A DNA stretch of 63,182 nt, counting the filler, from Kipferlia bialata (lineage: Eukaryota), in assembly GCA_003568945.1 (NCBI GenBank). It is 6 parts of 6 records of this genome, joined end to end, with 100 filler letters (N's around TTAATTAATTAA, not from the genome) between each part and the next. Parts side by side here need not be neighbours in the genome. Positions count along the whole stretch, not along the records: positions 21,106 to 31,555 come from BDIP01001422.1; 5 more parts are not named here. One strand, written 5' to 3'. A program made the position numbers and the translations under genes. Within the stretch, counting starts at the first letter, position 1; each line of letters starts with the position of its first letter. This document shows positions 10,606-54,299 of this stretch, piece after piece. Below the pieces are notes generated by a model. It saw nothing but the letters and a program-made list of their open reading frames with translations, ran no database searches and had not been told where the DNA came from.

Positions 10606-10667
10606 CGTACAATGACACACTCAATTGATACTTACTGGATACTGACAGTGACATCCCTACCCCTCAC

Positions 10668-14160: not shown

Positions 14161-15540
14161 TCAGTCCTCCTCTGTTGTCTCCTGGTCGATGCCTGACCAG
14201 GTGTCAGTGTCAGAGGTGTCACACAGACTGTCCTCCAGGGCATCACCTACATCACCTACATCACCTACATCACCATCCCCCTCCCCACCACCATCACTGT
14301 GTGTGGAGTCCGTAGGTAGGGAGGGTATGTCCCCAGGGCCATGGGGAGCAGCCTTCCCACCCTTGGTGACCATAGCCACTAGTGATGCCCAGACACCCCT
14401 GACCACGGCATACCCCACCCCCCCGCCCACCTCTGGGGCAGCATCCCCCACCGCCACAGACACCACCCTGACACCTGCAGCACCCATGGCCCTCAGACAG
14501 GCACCCACGTTCACACCCAGCACACACACCTGGTATCAGTATCAGTGTCAGTATCTGTCAGACACCGCTCCATATGATACTGATCTATATATTGCATATA
14601 TCCACACACCTGGACCCACGATGCAGTGGGGGCTCCCGCCACAGCCTGCCGCACCTCTAGGTAGAGGAGGGGGAGAGAGGCGTGGAGGGCGGCAGGGGAC
14701 ACGAGTAGAACCCTACAGAGTGTGACTAGGGATGGTAGTGCGGCACAGAGAGAGAGGGCGGGCCCCCAGTCCAGCAGCCATAGCACATTGAGCCAGACGC
14801 ACACCAGACACTCCGCTGTCCTGGGCATAAAAGGGAAGGATGGGGTGGGGGGGGATGAGAGGGGGGGGGGGGACACGATAACCTGAAGAATGATAGACCC
14901 AAGAATAACAAAGTGTTCACTGCCCCCTGCCTGTCTCTCAGCAGCTGTCTTGATGATACTGATACTCATACTGATACTTTTGATACACGGACACATGATA
15001 CGCATACCTGCCTATCAGCAGCATGTGGATGCCGATGGACTGGTACTGCGGCACCGACCCCCATATCAGTAGGGTCTCGGTCACAGAGAGAAGGGCGTCA
15101 GGAGGAAAGAGGTCAGAGTACCCTACTACACAAGAGACATCAGAGGGGTGCGGGTCCGGGTCTGACAGAAGCCCCTCTGATAGTACTGTGGCTGCTCGCA
15201 CAGAAGTGTCCAAGGCCACCCACAGCCGGAGGGCAACGGGGGTGATGTCCTGAGACCCCTGACACGTGGGGTGGTCATTGGGGAACATCACCCGCCACAG
15301 ACACCATAGGGCGCACACCCCGGCCACTCCCAGCAGCATCGTCCGTAGCATGGTCCGGCAGACGCTGCTGAAGTATGGGGAAGAGCCAAACCGAGCCAGA
15401 GACCAGCTAACAGATAGGGTAATCGCCACAATGGTGCTGGTGACTGTGCACCATCCTATGAACCAAAATGTGGCAGGAAGAGACTCAACTACCCGTGTCA
15501 GGGAACAGACGTCAATCAATGCCTCTAAGCCTGGCATGCC
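14161..15540 (-). CDS. Hypothetical multi-pass membrane protein with acidic C-tail, about 3 exons, start uncertain
   Basis: Hydrophobic segments (FWFIGWCTVTSTIVAITLSVSW; LLGVAGVCALWCLW; LVCVWLNVLWLL) joined through GT-AG introns to ...DQETTEED*. Confidence 0.5.
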
Positions 15541-15811: not shown

Positions 15812-16408
15812 ATGTCTTGGGATGGAATTCTGAGCCAGATGCTGACCTCCAAGGGCAACTGCACTGAGGGTGCTGTCTACGGACGCAACGGTGCTGTGTG
15901 GGCCAAGTCTGCCAACTTCTCCCTCAACCCTGAGGTTTGTAGATGGTCATGATGGGTCTTTGACAATTTGACAAGTTGCCCTCTCTTCCTCTGTTCTCAA
16001 CCCAGGGCATCATCCAGTCCATGTTCTCTGACGCTGGCCGCGAGTACCTCCAGACCAACGGACTTTACATCTCCAACTCCCGCTTCAGATTTGTTCGCGG
16101 AGACGATGAGGTATGAGTGAATGTACAGTGATCATAACAATTACACTCTTCCTTTCCGTACAACATGTTGATGTGTCCCCTCATATTATCACGACCACTA
16201 TCAATATGGTACAGAGCCTTGTGCTGACTTCCAGGTGATCATCATGGCCGCCTCCAAGCCCGAGGACGAGAACCTCCCCCACGGAGCCTTCTTCATCGCC
16301 ACCAACCAGACCGTGGTGTGCGCCGTGTTCCCCGCCCGCACCTTCAAGGGCGCTGCCTCCCTCGACGCCCACGCCCTCGCTGACTACCTCAAGACATCTG
16401 GGTACTAA
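15812..16408 (+). CDS. Profilin, 3 exons, complete
   Basis: MSWDGILSQML...EGAVYGRNGAVWAKS / ...LQTNGLYISNSRFRFVRGDDE / ...ATNQTVVCAVF...ALADYLKTSGY*. Strong C-ending codon bias; AATAAA near 16493. Confidence 0.93.
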
Positions 16409-21105: not shown

Positions 21106-21154
<49 letters not shown>

Positions 21155-21162
<8 letters not shown>

Positions 21163-24100
21163 AGGTGGGCTCTGCCATCCCATAGGTGTATATACAAGGT
21201 AGATATGCACGTAAGATCATTACCGTAGAAGACATGATTCTTGCAAATACCAATGTATATCCACGCCACTCACCGTCCAGCAGTAGAATCGAGGGTCTCC
21301 CGGTCAGTGCGATGGCCAGACTGCACCTGATGGGTCAGTGAAATATGGTATGTATATACTATATACACATACTATATACACTTGTATGATGTCAATGTAA
21401 TGGCCAGACTGCACCTGAAGGGTCAGGGGCGTATTACAATATACAAATGATGCCCCCAGACAGGGTGTATCTCTCTCTCTCCCTAGCTCTATACACATAC
21501 CCATACTACACATATAATATACTGTACCTCCGCTGCATGCCCCCAGACAGGGCCCCGATGCGGTGGTCCCTCTTCTCGGTCAGGCCTAGGGGTAAGGTCA
21601 TACACAAGGAGAGGGAGGGAGAGAGGGAGGGAGAGAGTAAAGAACCACACACTCTAGCGTACCTACGCTCTCAATGAGTGGGTCAACTGCAGCCAGTGCC
21701 TCCTGTCTAGACAGACCCCTCAGCCTCATGTAGAAGACAACCTCCTCGTGCACAGTAAGCTCGAGGTGGAGTCTAAGGGGTCAGTACGTCTGTACGTGTG
21801 AACACATACAACAGTAACAGTTCAAATACACTAGATCTATATACTGTCTCTCACCTGTCATGCTGTGGACACACTCCCAGCTGACTCAGCAGCCTGGCCT
21901 TGTCCAACCTGGTCACATCGCCACCAGCTATGTAGACAGTGCCGCTACGGTTAGTATATATAGTCGTATGTATATACATATATTATGAATGTCTGTAAGT
22001 GTGGCCTTGTCCAACCTGGTCACATCGCCACCAGCTATGTAGACAGTGCCGCTAGAGTTAATGTCTGTAGTCGTTTGTATATATATATACTATGTAGGTA
22101 TGTATAGTACTTGTCCAGCCTGGTCACATCACCCCCAGCTATGTAGACAGTGCCGCTAGGGTTAGCATGTAAAGAGTGGAATGAATACAAAGCTATGTAG
22201 ACAGTGCCACTGAGGGTAAGGAAAGGTAGTTGGAATGTATGATGACACGACATAAAACTATACTAACACAATAGGTGTGTGGTCCCATCAACAGTACCAC
22301 TGAGTGTTAGTATGTATAAATATTGAATCGAAAGAGTGGTACACTGGAAACCGCAGTATACCTAGTTGGTCTGAGTGTGCCGCATATGAGGTTGATGGTG
22401 GTAGATACACATTCATATATGTATATAGATAGATATATACTCATATATATATATATATATATATACTATACCTTGTGGGTCTCAGTGTGCCGCATATCAG
22501 GTTGATGGTATATATACAGTATATATGCTTATAATACTATACTCATATAAAGATATAAGTATACATATATACCTCGTTGGCCTGAGTGTGCCGCATATCA
22601 GGTTGATGGTGGTATATATACGATATACATATGAATACACTCATATATACATGTATAGATGTTTCATATACCTAGTAGGTCTGAGTGTGCCGCATATCAG
22701 GTTGATGGTGGTATATATATATAGATAGATATATAGATATATAGATATATAGATATATATTTGTGTATATATATATGTACTATAATGTACTATATGTTAC
22801 CTAGTTGGTCTGAGTGTGCCGCATATCAGGTTGATGGTGGTAGATACACATTTATACATGTATATATATAGATATATACTCATATGTATATATATACTAA
22901 TGCATTCTACCTCGTTGGTCTGAGTGTGCCGCATATCAGGTTGATGGTGGTATATATACAGTATATATACTCATAATACTATACTCATATATAGAAATAT
23001 ATATATACTATACCTAGTAGGTCTGAGTGTGCCGCATATGAGGTTGATGGTGGTGCTCTTGCCAGCACCGTTCTCTCCTGGGGTGTGAGCAAATGTATAC
23101 ATACGCATATTTATATATATATAGAGAGAGAGAGACGAGTTAGAGGTCATTCGAACAAGAGCAAGGAATATCCATATATACACTTAGCATCCCGAAGCAC
23201 ACGAGAAACAGACACAACACACACATATACAGGTATATAATCATTGAGAGAGAGATACCTAGCAATCCGAAGCACGTGTCCTTGTCGACAGCAAGGGAGG
23301 TACGGTGAACGGCAGTGTTGGCTGGGTCTCTACCCGTGGCCGGGAATACCTGGGTATGGGAAAGAATACAGAAAGACAGCGTGTGAATAATAGTAGAAAT
23401 ATCACTCCTAGATCGAATATGAGAGAGGGCCGGGAAAACTCACGCAACACACTAAGCACTATACCTGCAACTCTATTGTATCCATTTATACCAGTTTATA
23501 TACATATACCTTCTTGAGCTGTGTGATGACCAAGGGTGGCAGACCACTTGCCATATATATAGTACGTCATGCTTTTAGAGAGTGTACATAATATGTAGTG
23601 TATAGTACATACCTTCTTGAGCTGTGTGATGACCAGAGGTGGCAGGCCACTCTCTCCCTCTGTCTCTCCCTCTCCCCCTCCCGCTGTCCCTGTCTCCCCC
23701 TTGACCAGTGTCTGCACCCTCTCTCTCTCAAGGGCGACATCGGCATCCTCATCTACAGTTAGGGGCGTATAGATATACTTACTTATGATATATAGTATAT
23801 AGTAAACACTATGTGTCTGTATTCTCTCTCAAGGGCAACATCGGCATCCTCATCTGCAGTGAGTATAATTTGTATGAGGTATTGTCATCCCATACATGTA
23901 TACTACACAAATACCAGTACCTTCCTCGTCTCTCTGCCCATCTACCAGTAGGGCAGTGGTCTCTGTACCAGAAGACTCTCCCTACAGTGAATGATATAGA
24001 TATAGCTAGAGGTAGTAATAGTGGGAAACAAATGTTCACTACACTCTATATGTACAGCTGTGCAGTGCATATCCTCACCTCGCAGGCGTTGGCCCCGTAC

Positions 24101-24353
24101 TTCTCTCTCTCTCTCTCTCTCAATGTGTATGTATAACTCATATATAAATATAGGAACACTATGGTACATTGCATCCTCACCTCGCAGGCCTTGTTCTTGG
24201 CCTTGGCCCCGTACTTCTCTCTCTCTCTATATATATATCTATACATACAGAATGTAGCTACTAACCTCGCAGGCCTTGTTCTTGGCCTTGGCCCCGTACT
24301 TCTCTGGGAATATGTACCCAAGGAAGAAGAGAGGGTTCAGACGGGACTAGAAT

Positions 24354-24393
<40 letters not shown>

Positions 24394-24700
24394 GAGATGT
24401 ACCCGAGGAAGAAGAGGGGCTAGGGTAAGTTACATATTAATAATTTAGAAAATGACAGATATAGAGAGAGAGAAGGAAGAAGTGGGGGTTCAGACGGGAC
24501 TGGGGTAGGAAATATTGAAGCTCAAACATTGACAACACAGAAATATCAATACGCTATACAGTAGAACCCTACCTCCCCAGCCGTTGGGAGTACGTTGTCC
24601 AGATAGCTGCCTATCAGTCCATAGACCAGACCCTCAAGCACAAGCATAGCACAACCGAAGAGGAATTGTCTACCTCTGGGGGTAAGTATCGGGTATGGAC

Positions 24701-24731
<31 letters not shown>

Positions 24732-26344
24732 ACACTCCCCAAGCACGCATGCATGAAACAGTAGAAGAGAGAGTACTCTATATACATACATCAGTGTGAG
24801 TCCAGTCATATCGACAATGATGAGGGAATATAGAGCAGTCGCAGAAACTATACCATATATCACATACCTCAGTGTAAGTCCAGTCATATCGTCCATGGTG
24901 ATCCTCTCTCTCCCCCTCTCTCTCTCTCTCTCTCTCTAATACTACTTATATATATACCTCAGTGTCAACCCAGTCATATCGTCCATGGTGATCCTGGAAT
25001 CCAGAGGGCCAACGGGGGTGAGGTAGGCTAAGAGTAAGGAGAGAGAGAGAGAGAGACAGAGTTACACAAGATGTTGAAGAGCAGGAAGAACGCTATATAT
25101 ATATGAACAGGTAAGGAGAGAGAGAGAGAGAGAGAGAGTAGCCAGAGGGCCAATTGGCGTGAGGTAGGTGTTAGATTGGAGTGAGAAACCAACAGAGCAG
25201 AAAGACATAGTACACGTTGAGCGGGAGGAAGACACACACGCACATGTATACTGAACTAAAACATGAATGGAACACATGTAGTTGAATAACGGTTCTAGTA
25301 CTCTACGTACGTACACAGAACGCTACATATACATGAACAGAGACAGAGAGACTACATACACAGCATGTTGAAGAGCAGGAAGAAGGGCCAGACGTATATG
25401 CAGTCAGGGACACCGAGGAGCAGGAACACATTCTGGTAGATGGGGGCCTAAGGGTTAGATATATATATATATACATAGAGAGAGAGAGAGAGAGTCTGGG
25501 ACGCCGAGTAGGAGGAACACATTCTGATAAATAGGGGCCTGGCAATAAGGGGGTAGAGGGGGGGGGGGAGAGAGAGAGAGAGAGATTATGTGACACGCAG
25601 CAGCAGTAACTCTCTGCACGTGTATGGAAATGGATGAACTATACCTGGAACAGTAGGATGATGACTGAAGATATCTGTAATAGAGACTGCCAAGAAGATT
25701 GCTGTCTTTGTCTTTTTGATAATACATATAACATCAATAATGGCCAGTAATCAATAACATCAATTCCCTAACTACACACCTGGAACAGTAGGATGATCAC
25801 TGCCAGGAAGATGGCCGTCTTAGTCTTTGTGAAGAATATACCAGCACACAATAATAGTAATCAATTCTCTCAGTGTGTACCTGAAATAGCAGGATAATCA
25901 CGGCCAGGAATATAGCCGTCTTTGTACCTCTAAATACTAGTCTCTAAAAGGATAAAATACCTGGAATAGCAGGATAATGACTGCCAGGAATATAGCTGTC
26001 TTTGTCTTTGTGAAGAATGCGGCATAGCACAGAGAGACACCGGCACAGGCTATACCCCAGGAGACACCTGGTGGTTAAAGGGTGTAGAGAGAGAGAGAGA
26101 GGGAGAGAGACACCGGCACAGGCAATGCCCCACGAGATACCTAAGGGTTAAAGGGTGTATAGGGGGAGAGAGAGAGAGAGAGAGAGAGAATGCCGCATAG
26201 CACAGGGAGACACGGCACAGGCAATGCCCCACGATACACCTATAGTCAGAAAAAGGGTGTAGAGAGAGAGAGAGAGAATGCCGCATAGCACAGAGAGACA
26301 CCGGCACAGGCAATGCCCCAAGATACACCTAGGGATTAAAGGGT

Positions 26345-26396
<52 letters not shown>

Positions 26397-28790
26397 TACA
26401 CACCCACAAAAGCAAAGTCACCCATATACTCATAGTATATAGGTCTAAGTACTGAGAGAGTGTCGGTATCCAACTGTGCACTCATGATGACCCAGGCCGG
26501 CATAGTATACACACATATACTTACATACGTATAGAAAATGAATATTGGCACTACTATAGTATACTATAGTATACAAGTAGATATATATATATATATATAC
26601 TCACTCAGAATGCCTATAAGTATATATATATATATGTCTTCACTCACTCATGATGACCCAGGCCAGGCCAGCATTGTCTGTGTACTCGGGCTGGGGTTAT
26701 GAGAGACAGAGAGAGAGAGAGAAAAGATACAAACTTATACCGGCATTGTCAGTGTACTCGGGCTGGTGAGTCAGACATAATGAGAGAGAAAGGTATAGAG
26801 AGAGACTTATATATAATAGAAATAGAAGAAAATATTTCATGTATACATTGAAAATTGTATACCCACCTGATTTGTGAATAGTCCGTAGAAGTACACAAAG
26901 GCATAGACCAGGACAGAAGTCTTGCATTCATATACAAATACATATACATATAGTACATGAGTATAAGTATAATAGTATGTGGAATACCCACCTGATTTGT
27001 GAACAGCCCGTAGAAGTACACAAAGGCATAGACCAGGACACTGATGGCAAAGCAGGAGATCATCCAGGAGATGTAGTAGGCCTTGAACCTGCGAGATAAG
27101 CATTTCATATTCATATTACGCGAGATATGCATAGACCAGTACACTGATGGCAAAGCAGGAGATCATCCAGGAGATGTAGTAGGCCTTAAACCTGCGAGTT
27201 AAGCTATTACTATATCGCGAAATAGGCACTGAGGCATATACGCGAAACAAGCTCTGTCAAAATGGTTCACAATGAGAGAGAGAGAGAGAGAGAGACTTAC
27301 CTCATTCCAGCCAGGAGCATGTTCTCCTTGAGCTTGTTCTCCTTCTCCTGGGGTGAAGAAGATATATATACGTATATATATATACATATAAAAATGAACA
27401 AGCGCAATAATGATGAATGAGTGTCAAAAGAATGCTCTCCTTGAGCTTGTTCTCCTTCTCCTAGGATGCAGATATGATGATACAATGTATATATATATAT
27501 ATCTATTTATTTATATATATGTATATATATATATGAAGTAATACAATAGCTTCTCCTAGGATGTTAATATGATGATAATACAATGTAAACACACAAATAT
27601 ATATATACACACACACATATATAAATATATATATAATAGTAATAGAATGGCGCACAATGATGACGAATGGATGTCAAGATGATGTTCTTCTTCCTCCTGG
27701 GGTGAATGACAGACCCCTACACACAGTGTTGAATTGATACAATAATGGTGAACATTTGGGTTGTGAACAGATATGAGTCCATGCAAATAGAACACACACC
27801 TGGATGATGCTCATCACAAACACGAACGTCATTATAAGAAATACAATACACTACAAACAGTATATATATAGTGTAATCTTTCCTTACTATGTCTAGCTAA
27901 TATCCACGAGATATATATATTAGATATATATATATATATTATGCATGTCCATGTACCTGGATGATGCTTGTGATGTGTATCACAAACACAAAGGTCAGCA
28001 CGAAGCAGAGCAGGGGGAAGGTGAGGGAGGAGATCTGGAAATGAGGGTGTTGGGAGAGAGACAAAGTGTATGTAGATTCACACTGTGAAGACATAAGCCA
28101 GTATACTGATATTACTAAATATTTTGGTACATATTGATTGTAATGAAAGAGCACAAATACTGTCCCTCTGTATCAACATGCACTCACCACTGTGTTGGTG
28201 CCCATTGGGATGGGGTAGGTCAGGATGCTGAGTATATCAATGTATATTTATATGTATATATACTAATACACATATATACTAACAATATGGATGCACTCAC
28301 CACTGTGTTGGTGCCCATGGGTATGGGGTAGGTCAGGATGCTGGGGGTGAGAGGGTGAGTGCGACAAGTATACATCTATATTCATATACACGTACTTAAT
28401 TTCTTGTGACCGTTTGACCTGCCCTTGTCCAAAAGAACCCCAAGTGTAAACAAAGAGAGAGTATATGTAAAATATATAGTATGTAGAAGTGTGTTCAATA
28501 AGTATAAATGTACTGATATATCATACGCAGTACGTACTGTATCTCCTGGGAGGGATATGCCTTAGATCTCCCCCCCTTCTCGGCCCATGCCTCTAGGGCC
28601 AAACAAATGAGGGTGTAGACTATATTACATATATATACACATATGTATACACATATACGTACTGTATTTCCTGTGAGGGATAGGCTTTGGATCTGCCCCC
28701 CTTCTCGGCCCATGCCTCTGGGTCACCAGATACAATGAGGTCAGAGACAATGCCCTCGAAGATAAGGAGCATCTGGGTGCCCTTGAGTTA

Positions 28791-28822
<32 letters not shown>

Positions 28823-29303
28823 CAATGAGGTCAGAGACAATGCCCTCAAAGATGAGGAGCATTTGTGTACCCTAATGTAAGAGAGAGAGAGACAATGAGG
28901 TCAGGCACAATGCCCTCGAAGATGAGGAGCAACTGAGTGCCCTATGGTGAGTGCTATACAGTATCTATAGTATATATAGAGAGTATATGTGTATACATGT
29001 ATATATATACTGGACAATGAGGCCAGAGACCATCCCCTGGGGTTAGAAAGAGAGAGAGCATATAGATATACATTCACTTACCACAGAGTACATACATCAA
29101 TATATAGGCATCATATATATCTATATATACATATACTCATTATTGTTGCTGTTCCCATTGTTACATCTATACATATACATATATACTCTGTGTATTATAT
29201 ATATATACATATTATACCTGTATCATGATGTTGGTCTGCATGCAGTTGATGTAGCCAATGAGGTCACTCTATACAATAGTACTATCCACAGAGTACTATA
29301 TCA

Positions 29304-29341
<38 letters not shown>

Positions 29342-31555
29342 TACCTGTATCATGATGTTGGTCTGCATGCAGTTGATGTAGCCAATGAGGTCGGCCATCT
29401 GGATGGTGTAGTCTGCAACAATAGTCTGAGATAAGGGTGTAGAGGGGGAGAGTGTGTGTATAGACATACGCCACAGTGTAGACCTATACTTATCCAGTAC
29501 CTCTGGCTTATGTGGGTATGATGCTGTCTCTGCATCATAGAGGAACATGTCTGTGCCCTCCCTCACAGTATATATACATACAAATCAATATATACATATC
29601 CAATACTATACAATATAGACAGATTAGACAAAGGCATATCTAATACCTCTGGCTTGTGTGGATAGCTAGCTGTCTCGGCATCATAGAGGAACATGTCTGT
29701 GCCCTCACATATATGTATGATACACTGTATACTACTGTAATATCATAGCAGATATTGTACCTCAGGCTTATGTGGGTATGATGCAGTCTCTGCATCATAG
29801 AGGAACATGTCTTTGCCCTCACAAAGTATATACATACATATCTATATATACATATCCAATACTATACAATATAGACAGTATATACAAAGGCATATCTAAT
29901 ACCTCTGGCTTATGTGGGTATGATGCAGTCTCTGCATCATAGAGGAACATGTCTGTGCCCTCCCTCACAATGTAGGCAGCATTGGGCATGATGTTGACAT
30001 AGGCCTATAGTTAGGGGTGTAGAGGGAGAGAGCGAGAGAGAGAGAAGGTGTGCAGCATGATGTGGCTTCTGTACTACTGTACTGTTACTATACATACCTT
30101 AGTATCCATCATGTCCTGCATCCACAGGTTGTAGTTAACATATATAGTCTCTACTTCTATATTATTGTCACACTATGTCTTACTACATTTATACCATAGT
30201 AGTGAACATATGTATAGATACACTATACCTTAGCATCCATCATGTCCTGCATCGACAGGCTGTAGTATACACACACATACTAGTACGAACATATATGATA
30301 AATATACCCATCGTACAGTCTACTACATAGTATAATATAGATATACCTTACTGTCTACCATGTCCTGCATTGATAGGTTGTTGTTGCACCACTCCATCGT
30401 GTCATAGAGATACCAGTATTCTATACATATATACATGCCTTACTATCATATATATACACTAGTATACTATATACATATATATATGTGTGTGTCTGTACCT
30501 TACTGTCCACCATATCCTGCATTGATAGGTTGTTGTTGCACCACTCCATGGTGTCATAGAGATACTGGTCCATCTCATACTCAGAGTCAAAAGGCTCCTA
30601 GTCATTAGAATAAGGGGAGTTTCATTAGATTAGGCTATTGCATATATATATATATGTTAGATCTACAAACAGGGAGAGAGGGGGAGTTAGATCACGGTCC
30701 ATTCCTATTCCTTCTTGGAAGAAGAGTGACTGTGGTAATAACTGTGGATTCTCTTCTAATCTCTCGATACATAGCTCCATACATGCTTTACATTTCCAAT
30801 ACAAATAAAAAATTTGCATACCTCTACTACGTTAGGGAACCTCTCACAGTAGTACACTGGGTATGGCTGGTCCTCGTCCCAGTAGTTAGGGACGCAGTAC
30901 TCAGACAGAGTATCTATCTGACAATAAGGGTGTAGAGAGAGAGAGAGAGAGAGAGAGATAGGGAACTAGAATGATACTAGTATGGACTACACACAAGGTA
31001 TCCATCAAGTAGTGACTGCAGTATTCGCTATACTCCAGATTAGAAGAGACCATTGAGTGGTTCCACGTGCCGTGTAACCAAGCATAAATTGACCATGTAC
31101 ATATGTAAATGTATACATATGTATGCTAAAAATTCACGTACCGTGTAACAAAGCAAATTCCTCCACATCCCACTGTATGTAGTGTCGTCTCCCTATAGAG
31201 AGCACATACTATGCGTATACTACATGCTATGAATACTATACGTACCGTGTATCCTAAGACGTTCCTCCACATGCCACTGTATGTGGTACCGTCTCCATAG
31301 AAGTGGTTGGTCTCATTCATGTGGATGTAGCCCCACTGCGCAGCGTCTAGGAGTTAGTGAAGAGTATACACTCCTATTTACACAACCACACACACCTACA
31401 CCGTTACACTATAGTGTCAAAACGATATATCGCGTAATGACTCACTTGCTGGGTCCTCGAATGTCTGCACAATGGCACTGATGAAGCCATTCCTGACATG
31501 AGGGTGTAGAGAGAGAGAGAATACAAAATGGCACTGATGAAGCCATTCCTGATAT
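21155..31555 (-). CDS. ABC transporter subfamily A, internal fragment spanning the whole scaffold, about 30 tiny exons
   Basis: EKENKLKENMLLAGMR..FKAYYISW (ABCA hallmark), TM exons, Walker A GENGAGKSTT, GVCPQHD, LTVHE, signature LSGGMQRR, Walker B ILLLD|EPTSGL. Confidence 0.92.
22003..22951 (-). repeat. Intronic half-exon echo arrays (6 donor-side and 3 acceptor-side copies)
   Basis: Copies of ACCATCAACCTSATATGCGGCACACTSAGRCCNACNAG|GT at about 22361, 22471, 22572, 22671, 22800 and 22910. Copies of AG|YGGCACTGTCTACATAGCT.. at about 22003-22054, 22110-22158 and 22192-22212. Confidence 0.95.
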
Positions 31556-33033: not shown

Positions 33034-36000
33034 TCACACGAAGCCCAGGTCTACGAGCAGGTTGACCACTCCTGGGGTTAGAGTATCACATATACACAAT
33101 CGATGAAATACATATATGCAAATATACTGGTGCATTGTTACATTCGGAATACCCACCTGGCAGTATCTCTATGGACCCCAGGCAGAGTGATAGGAATGTC
33201 TGGACCAGTATCTTGATGGGGTCATTGACCACAGCGTCCTGGGCTTAGGGGTGTACTATCGAATAGGGGAATACACTGTTATGTATAGCAACATAGTAAT
33301 GCCACTATTTGCTACCTGCACCACCCCGAGTAGATTGGCCACCATCCATGCTCTGCCCACCGTCTTTGCAAACTTCATGCTGTAGAGGAGCATCAGGAAC
33401 CCAACGCCCAGTAGGTACAGGAAGGAGAGGCTGTACCACAGGTATGCGTAACCGTAGGGGAGGTCGACCAGGGAGAGAGAGAGGATGGCACGTGAGAGCC
33501 AGTTCCTCTCCCTCGGTGGGAACCTCTTCCGCAGTGCACTATCCTTATGCTGGCCTATGGGTCTAGTGTGGGAGAATGCATACCTGAGCAGCATTGATGG
33601 AGGCAGGGCTATGATGGTGGTGCCACACGCTATCAGGAATGTTTGTGTGTATGTGTAGGGGACACACACGACGTCTGTGACAAGTAGGCCCTCCTCCCCT
33701 GGTCTGGCCACCCCTTCCTCACAGTCTGCTCTGAAGAACATGGCCGAGGTCAGGAATATGCCAAAGACAAAGACAAAGATGTTGGTCACTCTCCTAAGAG
33801 TGAGTGTAACGATAGGAACAATACAACCGTTCTGAGCAGTGTTCTTTGAATTGAAGAATCTACTAGCGAGTACCTCGGTCCTGTCATGTTATCGTCCTTG
33901 GCTGCCTTGTTGAACACCAGGGCACTCCACTCGTGGCCGGTGTAGATGTTAACCTTTAGCTTGCGCTTGAAGGTTGTCCAGAAGTTGACCTTCTCTCCAT
34001 CCTGGATGTGCTGCACCTTGGCCTGTGTAAGTAGATATATATATATATACACATATATACTGTATATACAAAGTAGATGGATATACATGATACTGTGATA
34101 ACACTTGCCTTGATGAAGCGCTCTGTACGCAGCTCCTGCAGGTCTGGCTGTGGTATGCGGAATGTGGTAGTCTTCCTCATGTTTGTTGTTGCACTATCTG
34201 GTGGAGTGTGGCAGGCGCGAGATAGTACAGTGGTATCAGCCCAGTTGAGTTCAGGAACACCCTTGGGTCTCTCCATATCACTAGAAGAGCCTCCACCGCC
34301 ACCAAGACCAGGATCGTAACTATCACTCAATTCCTCTGGGTTAACGTCCTTGACGGATAGAGTACCAGGACTAGGCGGAACGTCAAACGGTGTGAACACC
34401 ACGCTGTGCATTGACACACAAGACAGTTCATTACCAGTAGAGTCAGTCGCATTGGTGGCTCTAGCTGTCATGAACTCCCACTCATTATCACCGTCTCTGA
34501 CAGCCTCATCTGGCAGTGACGCGTCATTCGATGATGCATACATAGGGTTGACATTCCTTGCAGCCTTTGGCTTGAAGACCTGGGCTCTAAGGAAGGTGGC
34601 CATGCCGTTCTGCAGATTGTCAAAACTCAACACGATCATCAAACCCGCGTAGACAGAGAAGCACACACCCAACAGGTAGAGACCAAGTGGGTTATCTTCG
34701 ACTGATGAGAGTAGGTCAGGTATCTCCTCTGGGTCGATAGTGTTGACGTCAATGCCGTACTGGTGGAAGAATGCGACGAAGGATGTGAAGTGGTCTGTAT
34801 CGGCTAGGATATACCCAAGGTCAGGGTCGTAAGGGAGTGTGGTGATACCCGACTCACTCCATGCAGTGCCGTCCCAGGCCTTCACTAGGAGTGTGGCATT
34901 GAGAGACATACACTCATCAGGGTCGGGGAAGGAGGAGAGGGGGAGCTTGATACGGACAGGACTGCTTAGACCAGTGACCGACTGTTCCATACCATTCAGT
35001 GTATCAACTACCACAATAGATGTCATGGGCGAGTAGAATGATGTTGAGTTGTCTCCCATGTAGGGCTGGGCAACCGAGACCATTGCTAGAGCCAGGTCAC
35101 TGGTTGATCCAACCTCACTGCCGAATGTGGGAGGTATAGTAAATGAGGCATCTGATCCTGGTACTGATACCTCCTGCTCTACAGACTGAGTCGTCACTGC
35201 CTGAGCACTGAACTGAACATGCTGTGTCTCAACCTCCACAGGGGTCTGACCATCAACGAGACCACTTGCAATCTCTGCAGCCATAGTACTAACAGCACTG
35301 AATGCAAGCTCTGCAGTAATGCTACTGGTATCCGTCTCATCTTCACTCCAGATATTGTATTGCACACCGGCGTATATCCTCTCAGTCACACTCACAACGT
35401 CTCGCACTACTCTTGCGTCTACATTCCCACTCTCTGCCAGTGTGCCAACAATAACAGCCAGGGACTCAAGAGGTGCGGACTCCATATGAGAGAGGAGACC
35501 TAAGATGCGTGTAGCTAGCTGTTGGGCACCAGGTAGGGATATGATGTCATCCAGGGCTGACTCCACAGTAGCCGTCAGAAGTGCCACCACATCAGCCGAG
35601 AGAGTGTGATCATTGTCTGAAACAGTCTTTGTCAGAGCATCCAGAATGTTAAGTGCACTCGGTACATTGGCAGCCACAATAGCAGACTCCAATAGCTCAG
35701 CCATTCTCAAGGAGTATGAAGCCAAGTCAGTGCCATCCTCAAGAGTGACAGAGACTGTAGCAGTGTCAGTGTACGTCACACTAGCGCCACTGTCGTCTGT
35801 GACTATGACCCCCAGGTTATAGTCACCAATGGGTAGATACAACTCAGTTGAACTCCAGTACTCACTGGAGGCCATCTGTTTAGGTTGGGTCTCTGAACTG
35901 TCAACCGCTTGATAGGTGAATGTGTACTTCAGTGGACCAAGACCTAGGGGTGCTACCCATCCTTCAGCAGTGACAGACAGAGTCTCTGTTGCAGTCAACT

Positions 36001-39000
36001 CATGAGTGGATACTGTGAGTGATCCACTAGAGGGGGACTCTGAGGGAGATATCGTCTGATATGCAACACCCTCTTGGCCATCAGAATCTGTACATGTCAA
36101 CTGGAATTCATACTGGAAGAAGGAAGACATAGAGTCCGCAGCAAGAACCAGGTTAGGTGTCTCCAGAGATGTTGACAGGAGAATGTCAGGACTGTCCAGA
36201 TCCAAAGTGGGGCCAGATATTTGCTCCCACAGGAATGAACATGTTGATCCAGTTAGGGATATGCAGTTACTGCGGAGAGTGGTTTGAGCTGACTCCATTG
36301 GAGTCTCAGGGCTGATGCTGATACTACAATCTAACCCGGTGTCCTCAGTAACTGTGAGGGTGACTGAGGAGTATGATGTCTCACTGTCGACAAGAGATCT
36401 TGATGCAAGGAGTCCAATCACATATTCTCCTGTATCAACGTCGGTAGTGTCAATGCATACGGTGTCTACAGCATCACTGACTACTGCAGCCGTAGATAGA
36501 GTGTCTGGTATGTCCCACTCCAGAGAGTCGTAGTGTGTAGAGCACGATGTCAGACACACTGCCTCTCCACTAACTACAGTCCTACTCTCAGCACTTATGC
36601 AACTGACTGGGTCCAGTATCTGTGACACAATCTCAATGGAGTCCTCCCCAAATGTCTCAGTGGCACTCACGTCATAACGGGCACGCACACTAATCGTGTG
36701 GGTTGTACCCTCATCGAACGATGCTGCAGGTACCGACAGATAAGCCGATGTTGACCAGACATCAGTGATACCAGCCAGGTTCTCGCAGTTATCCCCACTG
36801 CAGATCCACATAAACTCAATAGAGGTTGCATCCCAGGATGACTCATACAGAGTGGAGTGTGTGCCTTCGGCCACCAATACAAAGGCATCCTGAGAGACAG
36901 AAAGAGGGCTGCTTGCCAGTATCCGTACCTGTGGCACAGTCTGGTCAATGATCAGTACCGTCTTTGTAGCAACAGATGAGTATCCACTAGACGTCGACAG
37001 AGTCAGAGAAACCACAAGATCAGTTTCAAGCGGCAACTCGTTCTCCGCAACATCGAGTAAGAGTGTGGACTGGGCCATGTACTCGTCGCCAAGGTTAAGT
37101 CTGGCCCCATTGTATGATGGTATGGTGACACTCCACTTATAGGATACGTCACTGTTGGTCTCTGTCTCTCCCGCAGAGAGGGAGAGACTACCTGAGGAAG
37201 GGAAGGCAGTACCACCCAGAATGGATGCTTGGGGGTAACTCACTACAACAGGTTCTTGGATGATGACTGCATGTGGGGTCTTAAGGTGACCAGGGTATTG
37301 GATTAGGTCATAATACTCGGCATCCGAGTCAACTTGTGGCAATACAGCAATGGTCTCGGAGAGGATGAGTGACCCTCCACTTGATATCTGAGCTGTGTCA
37401 ATATCACTACCAAGCAGTACAGTGAGAGTACTACCGACACCCCTGGTAAGTGACACATCTGACAAGTAGCACTGAGGGTCTGTGCCCAGCCAGGACACAT
37501 CAGCTAGCAGGTCATCACAGGATACAGTGCCGATGGTGGCGTCCAGTGATAGCTCTGGGAGGGAGAGAGATATGCGGCTGTAGTTGCCAGACCACACTGC
37601 TGTTGCATCATCATGCATCACACAGACACTCACTGTGGTAGAGGCTGTATCCCCATTGGATGTTGTAGCCTCGACTAGGATAGTGGTAAAGATATCCACC
37701 TCTAGGGTCAGTGTTGGATCGACCTCCAGTACCAGACTGCTCAGACAACTGTTGATGTCATCGACTAACCCGTTCCATACACAAGTGGTTATTCCGTCAT
37801 CGGTAATAGTAATGTCAGCAAATGACTCTGCTATCCACTGCAGAGTGCCGTCTGCCAGGGGGTTACCATCCTCATCCCAGAGGCCATCAACCATTGACAC
37901 TGTCACTTCCAGAATCTCATTGATATCTCTGTACTCAACCAGTGGCAGTATCGAGATATCCAAGACCTTACTTACGTAGAGTGTGCCGTCGTACTGGATG
38001 AAGGTAGGAAATTCCGGTATCATTGTGACCTCAATTGGCGATGTTACTATGTCCCAATCCCCATGGATAGTGTCAAGGACACTGATGGATAGCGTGTCTG
38101 TGCCATAGAACTCTAAGGGAGGAGAGTATGTCACACTGTCCATTAGAGTGCTCAGGTCCACAGATGTACCAGTCAGGCACAGAGACCCTTCCACCACTGT
38201 GGTCTCTGCTGAGGAATGCAGTGTACCGTACTCTACCGACAAGCAGCCAGTAAGACTCTCATCATCGTATGGTGCGTGCTCAAAGGTGATACCGGAAAGA
38301 ACAGTGGTACTCCCCTCCTCTACAGTCAAGGAGGGTACTGTCACTTGTGCTGTATACTCTACCACAGTAAATGTAGTAGTTGTGCCAGTGAGTGTCTGAT
38401 TCTCTACAAGTAGAGTCAGTTTGTATTCCCCGAGGTCTGCAAGTATAGTGGAGCCAAGTGTACATGACTGCTGTAGATCCTCTCCTTGAGACATAGTGAG
38501 TGTCTGTGATCTCACATAGTCTCCGAGATCAATGGATACCCTGACATACACTGTCTGCGATGTGACCGTGTTACCAAACTGGTCACGGACAGTAGCCAGT
38601 ACGTCCAGGTCGGTTCCGGAGAGTTGGGTAGATTGGTCACCTGGAGTGACAATCTCAGACATGGCACCGGAAGCGGCACCGTGGCCGATGGTAAGGGATT
38701 CTTCTGTTGTTGGGTACTCTGTACCTTCTAGACTCAACACCATCGAGTAGCTCCCACCGACTGTCAGTGCTGAAGTCTCACCGGTGTACAGGGAGAGAGT
38801 GTCGCTGTAGGACAATGGGAGTGAGAGGACCAAGTCAGAGTCTGATGCATAAACATTGAGAGCAACAGTAACGCCTGTGGGTATTGTGTTACGACATCCA
38901 TCAAGTACTGCGGCAGCCAGACTGAGTACATCATCAGGACTGTGCACCTCTGTAACAGGAACAATGGAACTCTCATAGGGCGACATGGCGCCAACAGTCA

Positions 39001-42000
39001 CCGTCACTATAGCTGTGCCCAGGGTAATACCGTCGACTTCAAGAGATACCGTGTAGACTCCGACAACCCCAAAGTCACTGACGGTCGATGTAGTGTATGA
39101 GTATTGATCGTCATCGGTATATAGCAGGGTGTACGGGCCAGTATCCACATATCCAGCAGGACCATCTGTGACAGAAATAGTAACAGAGCAGGAGTCTGGT
39201 ATGATGTTTCCATACTGGTCCCGTACGTATACTACCAGGGACACACTAGTACATGCAGTGTGTTGTGTGTCGTCAATGTGTGTAAAGGAAGTGGTGCCAT
39301 CAGCATAGGGGATGTCAGGAAGGACTTCAAACTGGACACATGACTTTTGAAGCAAGACTCCATCCACCTCCAGACACACATCATAGGAGCCTGCCAGAGT
39401 GAAGTCGGAAGGGGAAGTCGATCGTCTGAAAGCACCATCAACGTAAGACAGAACCAGTGAAGTGTCAAAGTATTCTTCTGTGCTGGACGAGACCTTGGCT
39501 GTAACAGGTAGGTCAGTGACCTCATTCTCATAGGCGTCTCTCACATACGCTGTAAAGACAGCCACCGTCTTAGCAGTGATATCAGGCATGCTTGGGATGT
39601 ATGAGAAGGTAGTTGTGCCATCTGATACAGCAGCACCAGGCACAACAGATAGGGTCTCTGCGGAGTGGGCTAGCTGAATACCATCCACAAGAAGAGTCAT
39701 AGTGTAGTCACCAGTTAGAACAAAGAACTGTCCTAGTATGGCAGCCTCATTGACTGTCACATAGTGACCCAATCCGGTGTGAACTAATTCTAAAGAGCCA
39801 GGACCAGTGTATCCAGAGACATCAGTTGTGACCTCAATGGAAACTACACCACTGGTGACTGGGTTGTTGAACTGATCAGCAATGTTCGCAGTCAATGTAA
39901 GAGTAGAGCCTGGCACATGGGAGGATAGGGAGTCACATGTAAGGCTGGAGTATGCCCCATCTTGCGCCAATCCGTGGGCGGTCTCGAAAGTCACCGAGGT
40001 CTCTGGATACGCTGTGCCATCCACACTCAGCTCCATCGTGTAGATACCAGACACGGTGACATCATTAGTGACACTCGTGTACCCGGATTCACCGGAGGAG
40101 TAAAAGAGGGCAGTTGACGCAACCAGTGTAGGAGTAGAGTCGTAAATGTTGACGGCTACATCATATCCACTGGATATCGGATTCCCACATGCATCGGCTA
40201 AAGTTGCAGAGAGAGTGAGGGCAGAGTCTGGGTTGTGTGGGGAGGGAATTTCCACTAGTGTGCTCTGTCCAACAGCGAATGGACCGACACCCACAGTGAC
40301 CACAGCTGTGTCCAGTGTCGAGCTCTCGACTTCAAGAGAAATCGTGTAGGATCCTACCAACCCGAGAGTGCTCAGTGTGGTAATTGTGTACTGACCATTG
40401 CCGGTGTTGGTCAGGGAATACGGCCCAGTGGTCTCATATCCACAGGGGGCATCAGTTATGGACACTGTCACAGTGCCAGAGTCTAGAATGGGGTTCCCAA
40501 ACTGGTCCCGCACATAGCCAGAGAGAGTGAGAGGGGCGCACGCGGTGTGGGTCCCGCCCTCCAGATACGTGTAGCTAGTAGTGCCATCAGAGTATGGCAC
40601 ATCAGGCAGCACTTCAAAGGTGATATTCGAGAGTGGCAGCTCTACACCCTCTACCTCCAGGCATACTGTATAGGTACCAGCCACTGTGAAGACAGAGGTG
40701 GAGGTGGTGAGCCTGTAGGCACCAGCAGAGTACGACAAGGGAAGGGGAGTGGGTGTGTACCCTGCAGGACTTACTCTCACACTGACGGTTACACCAAGAT
40801 CAGATATCTCATTCTGATTGACATCCCTCACGTAGGCAGTCAGTTCGACAGCCTCACCAGCTGTGATGTCGGGCAGGTCAGTAATGTATGAGTAGGTTGT
40901 AGAACCATCTGCTATAGCAGTACTTGTCACAACTGTGAGTGTCACTGCTGTAGTTGGTAGGGCAACACCATCCGCCTTGAGAGTCAGCGTGTAGTCACCC
41001 GCCAGTGTGAAGTGACCTCCCAGTGTTGCAGCGTCCATGGTTGGGGTGTAGTGGCCACCGGCAGTGTGTGTCATTGCAATTGATACAGGCCCAGTGTACC
41101 CTGCCACAGTGGTAATGACATCGATTGTGACTACACCACTGGTGACTGGGTTGTTGAACTGATCACCAATATCAGCAGTGAGTGTAAGACTGGAGCTAGA
41201 GGCATGGGAACCGAGATCAGGACAAGTTATACTGGAGTTGGCCCCATCATGGGCTGATCCATGACCAGTTGTGAATGCCTCCACTGCTGATGGGTAGGCA
41301 GTACCATCAACACTCAGCTCCACAGTGTATTCTCCAGATACTGTGACAGCAGTTGTGTCACAGGAGTACTTGAACACACCAGCAGAGTAGTATAACTCTG
41401 GAGATGCAACAAGTGATGACGCGGAGTCATAGATGTTGACGGCTACCGTATAGCCACTGGATATGGCATTACTACAGGCATCAGCCAGGGTGGCCGTTAT
41501 AGTGAGAGCAGAGTCTGGGTTGTGGACAGAGGCGATTAGTACTATACTGCTGTCGGCGGCAGAGACGGATCCAACACCAACTGTGACAGAGGCAGTATCC
41601 AGAGGTGTGCCGTCCACACTGAGGGATATCGTGTAGGTTCCCGCCAGTCCGAAGTCATTTGCATCGAGGGTAGTGTCTGTGTACTGACCGTCCGTCGTGT
41701 GTGTCAGGGTGTATGGACCTCTGTCTACATACTCACCAGGCCCCTCAGTGATGGAGACAGTGACAGGGTCAGCAGTTGGAATGCCATTGCCATACTGGTC
41801 TCTCACATAGGCAGCGAGTGTCAATGGTGTACACGCACTATGTGCCTCAGCTTGCACATGCGTGTAGGTTGCAGTGCCGTCGAAGTACGGCTCATCAGGC
41901 AGCACCTCAAAGGTGACATCTGCTAGTCCTAACTCAGTACCATCAACCTCCAGACAGATCGTGAAGGATCCAGCCACAGTGAACTCGGTAGCAGGGGCGG

Positions 42001-42099
42001 TAAGCCTGTATGCCCCTGCCGAGTATGTGAGGCTGAGGGTGGTTCCAGTGTAGCCGGCAGGGCTGGACGTGACCTTGGCCACCACAGCCGCAGTCGATA
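33034..42099 (-). CDS. Giant polycystin-1-like receptor: Ig-like repeats + cadherin-like + REJ + GAIN/GPS + 5 TM, 5'-truncated
   Basis: An ~8-kb open exon (34109-42099) carries repeated LTAYVRDQYGN Ig units, REJ-like segments (FLWEQISGP, PSSGSLTVS, LKYTFTY, LYLPIGDY), GPS-like AWDGTAWSESG...DHFTSF and TM1. Further exons give HEWSALVF...RRVTNIF..TSAMFF and LLYSMKF...AW...QDAVVNDPIKIL, ending VDLGFV* (stop 33034-33036). Confidence 0.85.
34023..34108 (-). other. GC-AG intron
   Basis: AAG|GCAAGT donor and TTACACAG| acceptor join ERFIK|AKVQHIQ in frame. Confidence 0.75.
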
Positions 42100-42479: not shown

Positions 42480-44888
42480 TATATACTATACTATATATAC
42501 TATATATATATATACTAAATGTATAGCTGATACTCAGATTGCCCTGGAGACTGACTGGGCATTTGGGTCTATATGTATATACTATAGTATATATATTATA
42601 TATACTATTTAAATATTCTTAGTATATATGTCTGACTCTTAGATTGCCCTTGAGACTGACTGGGCATTTGGGTCCGTAGTTGCAATAGGGGAGACATACA
42701 TGGTAGCATCCGCCAAGCATGGTATGGCAGTGCATATTTCAGTATATTTCTATATATGTAGAGAGAGAGGGTAGGAGACATACATGGTGGCATCATCGAA
42801 GAATGGTATGAGAGTGTGACAAACTCTCTCTCTCTCCCTCTCTCTCTCTTCCTCTCTCTCGGGAGCGGGTAGTTTATATCCCATTATTGTTCACTCTATA
42901 TATCACTATACCCTTACCCATTCAGGCCTCTATGTATCTGCCCTATCTGACTCTGGGGAGGGGGCATTATTAAGATATATACATATAGTAGATTTATACA
43001 TGGCTATGTATGATTATATAACACCAGGCCTGTATGTGTCTGCCCTGTCTGACGATGGGGAGTGGGTTATATATATATGTGTGTGTGTATATATAGTATT
43101 ATAACACCAGGCCTGTATGTGTCTGCCCTGTCTGACGATGGGGAGTGGGGTAGTGCCATGGCAGTCAGTGCACCACAGGGTATGGATACATATACATATG
43201 TATATATAGAAATATTCAGTTATGTATAATGTGTATATCATTGCCATAAACACATAAATACCAGTGTGTGCCTCAAAAGCTATGTGTAACTATTGTTATG
43301 TATATAAATTCCTTGTCAGCTATATTGGTGAATGTATGTTCTATGTATTGTGTTCAATGACACACTCTTCTCACCCTATAGATATTGCTCTACTTTCTAT
43401 ATATTTATATATATATGTATACATATTACCCATCCTCACTCCCATGCACTCTCTGGGGTGGCCTGAGTGCACTGGCCCATGAGGGGGACACACTGGCAGT
43501 AGGTATGTGTGTACATGGGTGTATATTTCTATATATACATCTATATAGAGAGAGACTTTGTACTGCATGGGGGGGGACACAATGGCAATAGGTGGGTGGC
43601 GTACTATTGGGTCTTGTTTTTGTTATCACGTGAAAATGTAGATACTGATGTAGCGCACTAGACGTGTCCACATTGTACGTGTTTATATATAGGTGAGTAT
43701 ATATGTATGTGTCTTATGTGTACCTGTCTAACCGCAGAGGCTGTAGGTAAGCCTCTTAATATATATATGTATACATAGGTGTATATCAGTATGTACATAT
43801 TACTATTATGTATGTGTCTTTCGTGTGCCGGGTTTATATATGAGATAGATATGGGTATATATACATATATATATGTATGTCTTATGTGTGCCTCTCTAAC
43901 CGCAGAGGCTGTCGCTGACGATGTCACCGACTATGAGGATGGTCTTCCACTGGTACGGTAATATATATACACTATATATATATATACTATATACATCACG
44001 CCCTCCCTGATGCCACTGCCTATCCACTAGGATGGTCTTCCACTGGTACGGTATTCTTGTGTATCTAGCGATTATTGTTTGTTATTAGTAATGTATATTA
44101 GTATTCTTAATACATTAAGTGTGACGATGGTCTTCCACTGGTACGGTGCTGTATACTGAGTTAGTATATAAATATATATATATGAATATATGGATGTATG
44201 CATACATATATGGATAGTCTTTCACTGGTACGGTATTGAATGTATACATGCACACATATATACATTGATTCTATTGGAGTAAAGTATGTATTAAACTCTA
44301 ATGTGTATATGAGTACTATGATACAAATCCTATATTTTGGCATTCCTTTTTGTATATACTCCCGCACATATGACACGTAAGATTTCTATGTATGACACAT
44401 TATTTCAACTGTTCATACTTCAACTTTAGGTGGTTATCTATCTTGTTTGTAGCCAATTCTAGCCGGTTATGTATCTAACTCTAGGTTGTTGTCTTCTCCA
44501 CCAACATCCCTGAGTGGTGGACAGAGGGCAACGTGGCAATGGCACAGGTATATTTACATATATATAGTAACCTATACATATAATGATGCATGTATAGTCC
44601 CCCTAGTGAATGTGTGTGAAGAGAACTATTATGCCATATATTGATTCTCTCTCTCTCTCTGTCTCTCTTTGTCTGTGCGTAATCCAGCGTCTGACATTCC
44701 CTGTCTGTTCCTCTGGTCTATATGTACATAATAATATAGGAAATAGTATATATTATTAATACAATAATATGTATATATAGTATTATATATATAATATATA
44801 TATTATATATATTATATATATTGTATATAGACCAGAGGCATGTATACATATTTCTTAACTCTTCTTACCCAAGCGTTTCACCTCCCGT

Positions 44889-44939
<51 letters not shown>

Positions 44940-45708
44940 ATACATATATATATATAAACATAAATATACTCCTTACCCCCAGCGTCTCACCTCCCCTGTC
45001 CACTCTAGTGACACTATCCAGTCCTATGGGGTGTCGATATCACTGCCCTATTGCAATGAGGGACAGAGGCCGGCATTCCTAGGTGTATATATATATATAC
45101 AAATATATGTGTGTATAATTGTATATATATATATATATATATATTTGTGTGTATATATATGTATATATATATAATTACTCTACTATTAGGACAGAGGCCG
45201 GCATTCCTAGGTGCCTTTCTCTATGGATATAAGAAAATGTATAATAGTGTATGTAGATGCTTACATATATCACTCACACACTGTTACCCAGGGGACGAAG
45301 CCCACATTCCTAGGAAAGTTTGCATATGTAATATACATTAATTGTACATTTACATTAGAGTATGTATATAGATGTCCTGTGAGCGGTACTCTTTCTTCTT
45401 GTAACCCCTAGCCGTTGGCGAGCCCTCCAAGACTGTGATGGGCATGGAGATATACCACTATATATATGTATGTATATTAATATATCAAGACTGTGATAGT
45501 ATGTGTATATACATACTATATTACTATACCTGACTCCCAGCCGTTGGCGAGCCCTCCAAGACCGTGATGGGCATGGAGATATACCACTATATATATGTAT
45601 GTATATCTCTCTGGAATTGTATATATAAATATATCATCTTGTCTACAACACTTTCTCTCCTTACCCCTAGCCGTTGGCGAGCCCTCCAAGACTGTGATGG
45701 GCTTGGAG

Positions 45709-45739
<31 letters not shown>

Positions 45740-54267: not shown

Positions 54268-54299
<32 letters not shown>

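Follow-up and report, generated by a model that had tools for sequence, protein, structure and literature searches.

Half-exon copies with mostly silent divergence in the introns of an ABCA transporter gene of Kipferlia bialata, and their probable origin from diverged alleles copied during repair

Introduction

Of the processes already described, the closest are intron gain by tandem duplication and, in hybrid Arabidopsis, microhomology duplications accompanied by chimeric alleles. In one-ended invasion or MMBIR, duplications are begun by homology and ended by microhomology. Intron gain by tandem duplication is treated in the available sections of PMC2891723 and PMC4974935, and an ASY3 tandem-duplication allele together with chimeric alleles of Arabidopsis lyrata/arenosa hybrids in those of PMC7392332. 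Introners, repeated sequences that add to protist introns, are covered in the available part of PMC9860276.

The genome of Kipferlia bialata, a free-living fornicate, has 124,912 introns, and the available part of the main text reporting them makes no mention of duplication, alleles, ploidy or heterozygosity (PMC5874029). The spliceosome of the lineage is reduced, with 87 of 174 proteins and no snRNA candidates found, according to the available part of PMC6679479. Stacked half-exon copies (here called echoes) with silent-only divergence were not found described for this species or elsewhere in the literature covered, most subscription papers lying outside its scope.

Methods

The window, the whole stretch of DNA that was analysed, is 63,182 nucleotides long (assembly GCA_003568945.1) and is composed of six unrelated contigs of about 10.45 kb each; the main case lies within 21106-31555. 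The spacers between contigs consist of 44 N, 12 nt and 44 N, at about 10454, 21006, 31556, 42100 and 52642, and runs of G or GA stand at the ends of several of the six contigs.

Echoes were searched for by nucleotide-only alignment of each exon with its two flanking introns, at a score of at least 30. For the headline set, 39 of the 49 ABCA matches were retained after removal of six in which no splice site was reached and four with gaps, and two codons were trimmed at each free end. In the simulations of decay, the exon accepted only silent changes and the copy drifted freely. Exons of other genes were taken from the annotated protein P0010 or from hand-built chains with a single stop-free frame. 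Contigs of two runs, X1 and X2, were compared over 29345-30095 only. X2 was treated as RNA-like because its contig skips a GT-AG intron, the run type being a guess, and X1 may be the source of the assembly itself. The X1 joint 29452-29568 (side 21) was left out as a likely repeat match.

Results

Host gene

Used as a protein query, the exon under study returned one cluster with the source name ABCA transporter, partial, Kipferlia bialata. The gene occupies most of one contig:

21274..31492, minus strand: ABCA gene, partial, 25 exons, 688 aa, with 49 echo matches and about 25% of intron bases in echoes.

Its protein (P0001, 688 residues) maps exactly to 25 minus-strand GT-AG exons, each 40-140 nt long, and carries Pfam matches to ABC2_membrane_3 (E 4.7e-13) and then ABC_tran (E 3.1e-28); it is partial, the second half of an ABCA transporter being absent. 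Another annotated protein, P0002, from a separate contig of 13,299 bp, is identical to P0001 across all 688 shared residues, has 160 extra N-terminal residues and shares its last residue; the two may be one locus that was assembled twice, or P0002 may be a recent duplicate. The nearest distinct annotated ABCA paralog, P0003, is 44-50% identical, and the echo peptide differs there.

A real exon and its three echoes

Four direct copies of one exon end, designated A to D, are present on the minus strand, each followed by GT:

29903..30004, minus strand: real exon, fifth of 25, AYVNIMPNAAYIVREGTDMFLYDAETASYPHKPE, copy A; exact spliced map of P0001, and RNA-like contig with no other letters.
29426..29902, minus strand: GT-AG intron of 477 nt containing three echoes; X2 joint 29425-29903, with CT..AC ends on the plus strand.
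29821..29902, minus strand: start of the intron behind copy A, sharing 73 of 82 nt with the spacer that follows echo C.
29761..29820, minus strand: echo B, final 60 nt of the exon plus GT, with T>K and one silent change.
29647..29706, minus strand: echo C, final 60 nt of the exon plus GT, with six silent codon changes including TCA>AGC.
29501..29572, minus strand: echo D, final 66-72 nt (approximately) of the exon plus GT, with one silent change.
29345..29425, minus strand: next real exon, TIVADY...NIMIQ; RNA-like contig and spliced protein map.

The initial annotation had described an intronic echo with six silent codon changes, among them a TCA-to-AGC serine switch, and alignment to the real exon confirmed it: echo C differs from A by GCA>GCC, ACT>ACA, GCA>GCT, TCA>AGC, TAC>TAT and CAT>CAC, that is by 8 nt in 6 codons, with the same peptide. 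The two further echoes that it mentioned, one with a T>K change, are B and D. Echo B carries ACA>AAA (T>K) and also a silent CCA>CCT, unmentioned in the initial annotation, and echo D a single silent ACT>ACA, the differences at its edge being alignment overrun. The exon parts of B and D are nearly identical to A despite unrelated flanks, their intron flanks resembling that of A at near background level. Echo C has an intron flank 89% identical to that of A and a silent divergence of about 50%, a combination with P of about 0.003-0.04 under one shared history. The intron beside copy A has a 256-nt period (1.8 copies, 90%), and the motif of C occurs once in the window when up to 3 mismatches are allowed.

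Among random sets of eight changes in the 60 nt of C, 0 of 400,000 were wholly silent, which rules out a single mutational burst as its origin. Threonine occupies the position of the switched serine in P0003, a distant paralog, and a tolerated Ser-Thr-Ser path is therefore a plausible explanation of TCA>AGC; as a donor of the echoes P0003 was rejected, given its low identity and different peptide.

DNA and RNA contigs over the locus

The X1 contigs listed match 29345-30095 with no other letters, contigs being prone to drop rare variants. A single X1 contig (29593-29794) runs without a mismatch through the donor of B, the spacer and the whole of C, at a depth of 433; its neighbours have depths of 351-481, and a stretch common to two copies has 863. 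Among the X1 pieces listed there is no cover of 29795-29862. An assembly or library artefact that chained pieces of different haplotypes might be suspected from this uncovered stretch, from the short-contig nature of the draft and from the possibility that X1 was the assembly's own source, but the contig through C has the depth of its neighbours, and a chimera would not obey the splice-safe layout given below; such an artefact is highly improbable. The initial annotation had named an exact match in a separate ABCA paralog, together with a chimeric contig, as grounds against its interpretation; what was found is a paralog of 44-50% identity and a DNA contig that spans C.

One X2 contig joins 29903 to 29425, matches copy A with 0 mismatches and skips B, C and D, so that the first of four donors is used in this RNA-like contig. 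In this one contig the main transcript skips all three echoes, rare isoforms being invisible in contigs. The codons of C were not seen in a full exon among the X1 and X2 contigs listed; the search for them in a full exon or in mRNA, which had been proposed from the sequence, was thus carried as far as these contigs and returned neither. The 5' part of the exon lies in one unbranched X1 contig of single-copy depth and, because X1 also shows no other letters, the sample looks haploid or homozygous at this exon.

The initial annotation had allowed that the fragment might itself be used. Service of echoes in mRNA as alternative exon ends or starts would account for the peptide identity and the full-strength splice sites, and rare isoforms could be hidden in contigs. 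Against it, splicing in the RNA-like contig is from the first donor and leaves out B, C and D, donor echoes come without an acceptor of their own, and some echoes carry stops or frameshifts; such use is very improbable. Read-through from the real exon to the donor of B or C changes the frame, and to that of D meets a stop.

Echoes through the ABCA gene and their silent bias

The 49 echo matches occupy 19 of the 24 ABCA introns and 2,012 of 8,153 intron bases, and 3 of 600 non-adjacent exon-intron pairs reached the threshold. That echoes run through this gene, and through several others, had gone unnoticed in the initial annotation. Two sets of donor-side echoes lie at:

22362..22951, minus strand: six donor-side echoes of exon 21 in an array, all differences silent.
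25645..25925, minus strand: donor-side echoes of exon 13, with 8, 4 and 3 silent codon changes and 0 non-silent in three anchored matches.

Across all 49 matches, differences by codon position numbered 31, 25 and 134, with pS 0.289, pN 0.039 and a ratio of 0.136. In the 39 anchored ungapped echoes (451 codons) pS was 0.307, pN 0.019 and pN/pS 0.062, and amino-acid change was absent from 31 of them. When each distinct codon variant was counted once, 72 were silent and 13 non-silent. Third-position changes had no GC/AT polarity (31 vs 30), and AT-biased decay of the echoes was not seen. Local duplication followed by decay gave simulated pN/pS values of 0.42-0.54 with a minimum of 0.31 (6 settings x 200 simulations), and simple decay was rejected for ABCA by binomial test (p<=2e-11, kappa 1-10). 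One-way conversion from real copy to echo was likewise rejected, its simulated ratio being 0.45-0.54 against the 0.062 observed. Since the observed ratio lies below the simulated minimum, the initial claim that the silent divergence needs long purifying selection is supported, as regards the fragment's past.

Stop codons occur in 2/49 ABCA echo matches and in 3/29 matches of the P0010 gene described below, and frameshift gaps in 3/49, 2/29 and 3/15 echo matches, so that some echoes are in decay. The seven copies of exon 21 are mosaic: every one of the four possible allele combinations is found at two sites that lie 21 nt from each other. The changes V>M and N>Y recur together in two exon-4 echoes.

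Layout, splice signals and junctions

A donor echo is an exon end with its donor and an acceptor echo is an acceptor with an exon start. Donor echoes stand after their own exon and acceptor echoes before it, with 1/110 matches on the wrong side. A whole exon was copied in 1/110 matches, and the other echoes have one splice site. Where an intron holds both kinds, the donor echoes all come first in 9/11 cases, and the two exceptions have either lost the AG (25168) or have no branch-like motif (28227):

25066..25168, minus strand: acceptor-side echo before the donor-side echo of another exon, the only such place; AG lost.
28188..28227, minus strand: whole-exon copy with AG and GT both present, the only one; branch-like motif absent before the AG.

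The splice dinucleotides of the echoes are kept (GT/GC in 50/50, AG in 43/46). The median acceptor score of echoes, 9.0, is like that of real sites, 9.8, other intronic AGs having a median of -2.9, and a branch-like motif was present in 16/40 echoes, 24/47 real acceptors and 27/664 other intronic AGs. The acceptor -3 base is unlike that of the real site in 21/38 echoes, and a pyrimidine (C/T) is retained in 19 of these 21. Mismatch between echo and real copy was 0.11 on the exon side, a value partly lowered by ascertainment since echoes were found through exon similarity; at intron positions 3-12, which were unconditioned, it was 0.48 for donors (n=42) and 0.40 for acceptors (n=39), and unrelated introns gave 0.65 and 0.59, respectively. 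Flank identity did not track silent divergence (Spearman 0.08). The free ends have a dinucleotide periodicity of 0.60 vs 0.42 (p=5e-10, n=81) and adjoin microsatellites of (TA)n, (CT)n or (GA)n. No inverted or cross-contig echo copies were found in the six contigs (63 kb) after low-complexity filtering.

The head-to-tail layout and the microsatellite junctions are what plain local tandem duplication at microsatellites, with later neutral decay of the intronic copy, would produce. Eight of 81 anchored echoes have at least 10 intron bases in common with the real copy, as such duplication would leave them, and the P0010 gene taken alone fits. This course of events predicts a pN/pS of about 0.4-0.5, which is already rejected for ABCA at 0.062, and young copies should match the flanks of the real exon, whereas 11/13 near-identical echoes have no more than five intron bases in common with it; it is accordingly a quite improbable account.

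Echoes in other genes of the window

Echo-like direct repeats are present in 5/6 contigs and are densest where introns are TA-rich; the fourth contig has long coding repeats only. Two genes outside the ABCA contig carry many echoes:

42643-50858, plus strand: P0010 gene, 626-aa hypothetical protein with a weak filamin-repeat match and a likely C-terminal membrane helix; 29 echo matches.
53149-56024, plus strand: UCH (Peptidase_C12) gene with many echoes; Pfam match on the second exon.

The pN/pS was 0.30 in the P0010 gene (25 echoes), 0.12 in the UCH gene (11), and 0.13 (7), 0.10 (2) and 0.22 (4) in three further gene pieces. None of these five pieces alone rejects simple decay at kappa of at least 3 (p=0.06-0.34 for the P0010 gene alone); pooled, 68/116 steps are silent (p=2e-5 to 3e-3). 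The echo layout is thus general in the window, and a strong silent bias is proved for ABCA only.

These distributions bear on the possibility that the donors were close paralogs, since lost or unassembled, rather than alleles. The identity of P0002 with P0001 on another contig favours it, as do the V>M and N>Y common to two exon-4 echoes, which look like one diverged working source. The sole other close annotated ABCA, however, has a different peptide at 44-50% identity, the unbranched 5' part of the exon in X1 gives no sign of a second copy with different introns, and the same pattern recurs in the UCH gene and four other unrelated gene pieces. Paralogous donors are for these reasons considered improbable.

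Several observations concern the annotation of these contigs. The annotated P0010 exon 47059-47304 looks as if an intron had been left in it, and near 43430-43600, outside the P0010 annotation, lies a stretch that resembles an exon and has an echo of its own. A Pfam scan of the first UCH exon gave no match. Three acceptor-side echoes of the UCH gene have K in place of the R of the real exon, K being the residue of the UCH family. The UCH exon near 55940 appears without an AG, and an upstream copy at about 55835 has one. At 55164-55271, two identical 53-nt copies with NN between them are probably a scaffold-gap duplication, so that one UCH echo may be counted twice. On the minus strand, 33900-42099 holds a very long, apparently intron-free frame that probably encodes a large surface protein and contains repeats of about 1,293 nt at 66% identity, on a contig without echoes. 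A small gene with two introns and no echoes at 15814-16408 (plus strand) is presumably a profilin, and another at 10650-11340 (minus strand) is taken from its motifs to be small GTPase-like (Rab-type). The introns 12104-12144 and 12755-12900 are made of (CAGTAT)n and, after it, the reverse-complementary (ATACTG)n, so that stem pairing is possible, and the CAGTAT hexamer recurs near 205-250, 14535-14590 and 14955-14980. Short intronic stretches at 6277-6292 and 6887-6903 resemble a reversed tRNA T-arm.

Discussion

The echoes are likely exon-intron junctions that repair copied from other alleles, diverged but functional, of the gene in which they lie, a reading to which we assign a probability of about 0.57. 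Each echo was most likely once a functional junction elsewhere, judging from the sequence features of the copies: similarity drops at the splice site, the signals are of full strength, and pN/pS is low. That the splice signals have diverged and yet kept full strength is as expected of junctions that diverged while working. The silent bias would then go back to the time when the donor sequence was still a real exon, and echo C would be the former real exon end of another haplotype.

In such a process, homologous recombination would mend a break in a microsatellite-rich intron with another allele as template, aligned chiefly through its exons. Copying would run past that allele's splice site until microhomology at (TA)n, (CT)n or (GA)n let the strand rejoin; the product would be a tandem insert made of an exon end with its donor or of an acceptor with an exon start. 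The polarity of the echoes and their free ends at repeats fit such homology-initiated, microhomology-ended repair. Metamonads are reported without Ku70/80 and DNA-PKcs and are thought dependent on homologous recombination and alternative end joining, according to the available part of PMC8516963. Only inserts that form no AG...GT pseudo-exon would persist, which may explain the layout observed. Later gene conversion of the exon part only could have mixed silent variants, as the mosaic copies suggest, and some echoes then decay through stops and frameshifts. Splice sites seem to be paired across the exon and not over the shortest intron, that is by exon definition (pairing across exon and intron is defined in the available part of PMC3488318): the one transcript contig takes the first among four strong donors, and where several acceptors follow one another the annotation has the last; survival only of inserts without a pseudo-exon would imply the same.

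The initial suggestion of a deeply diverged functional version as the source fits all the data, and no such version is among the contigs listed or the annotated proteins. No donor allele was seen in the X1 and X2 contigs listed or in the annotated proteins, and the metagenome matches listed comprised one unrelated ABC ATPase (L001, 30% identical). Origin from alleles requires that alleles differ at silent sites by about 0.3 on average and by as much as 0.6-0.8; the highest known silent diversity in eukaryotes is about 0.15-0.2, below this need. The donor that was not found and the very high silent diversity implied are the main weakness of the allelic origin. Echo C, with its close flank and silent divergence of about 50%, requires an extra conversion step.

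Peptide identity without a visible donor could also be explained if echoes were spare exon ends under ongoing selection, swapped into the real position by recombination, through conversion or through single-strand annealing once an intron breaks, often enough to purge those with changed amino acids. The mosaic exon-21 copies, the full-strength splice sites and a clade without NHEJ are compatible with this. Purging, though, would need a swap rate times population size above 1, and a silent divergence of 30% would be kept only if the swap rate were near the mutation rate; both needs imply very high diversity or exchange between homologues, so that the proposal shades into the allelic origin. Stops and frameshift gaps indicate decay of echoes, and no pop-out joint between copies is among the X1 contigs listed. 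Swapping of spare ends is hence possible but doubtful. It is similarly doubtful that spare ends still selected for protein stand beside most exons of TA-rich genes, their introns acting as a repair backup and allele archive in a hyperdiverse, cryptically recombining population.

If the copies do come from diverged alleles, a single genome would record alleles absent from the sequenced cells, diversity would be estimable from one assembly, and the echoes would be evidence that very diverged haplotypes of this free-living fornicate undergo exchange. They would also represent a route of intron growth that has given about one quarter of ABCA intron sequence, and the rule of their layout would serve as a natural experiment in how splice sites are chosen, one that points to exon definition. 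The full-strength splice sites of echoes can mislead gene prediction and read mapping.

Comparison with known systems

Intron gain by tandem duplication resembles the echoes in that coding sequence is duplicated head to tail and then spliced out, with no change to the protein. Unlike that process, each echo spans an existing exon-intron junction and makes no new intron between AG|GT copies; echoes sit inside existing introns and are removed with them. There are up to six copies per array with mostly silent differences, and tandem-duplication intron gain would be expected to show neutral decay at a pN/pS of about 0.4-0.5, against 0.062 for the ABCA echoes.

Duplications left by repair resemble the echoes in their direct orientation, in the simple repeats at the free junction and, if the donors were alleles, in the chimeras of diverged alleles, but those known are single events, whereas echoes recur in most introns of a gene, in 5/6 contigs and over about one quarter of ABCA intron bases. 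Tandem or mutually exclusive exons and pseudo-exons are likewise exon-like copies beside their parent, sometimes with a conserved peptide; the echoes differ from tandem and mutually exclusive exons in having both acceptor and donor in only 1/110 matches and, for B, C and D, in being skipped in the one transcript contig. Introners also are repeats that enlarge protist introns, but each echo matches its neighbouring exon only and none is shared across the six contigs. Unlike retrocopies, echoes end in GT or start after AG, have intron-like flanks and do not join neighbouring exons. The ABCA host protein, with its ABC2_membrane_3 and ABC_tran domains, is ordinary, and the novelty lies in its introns.
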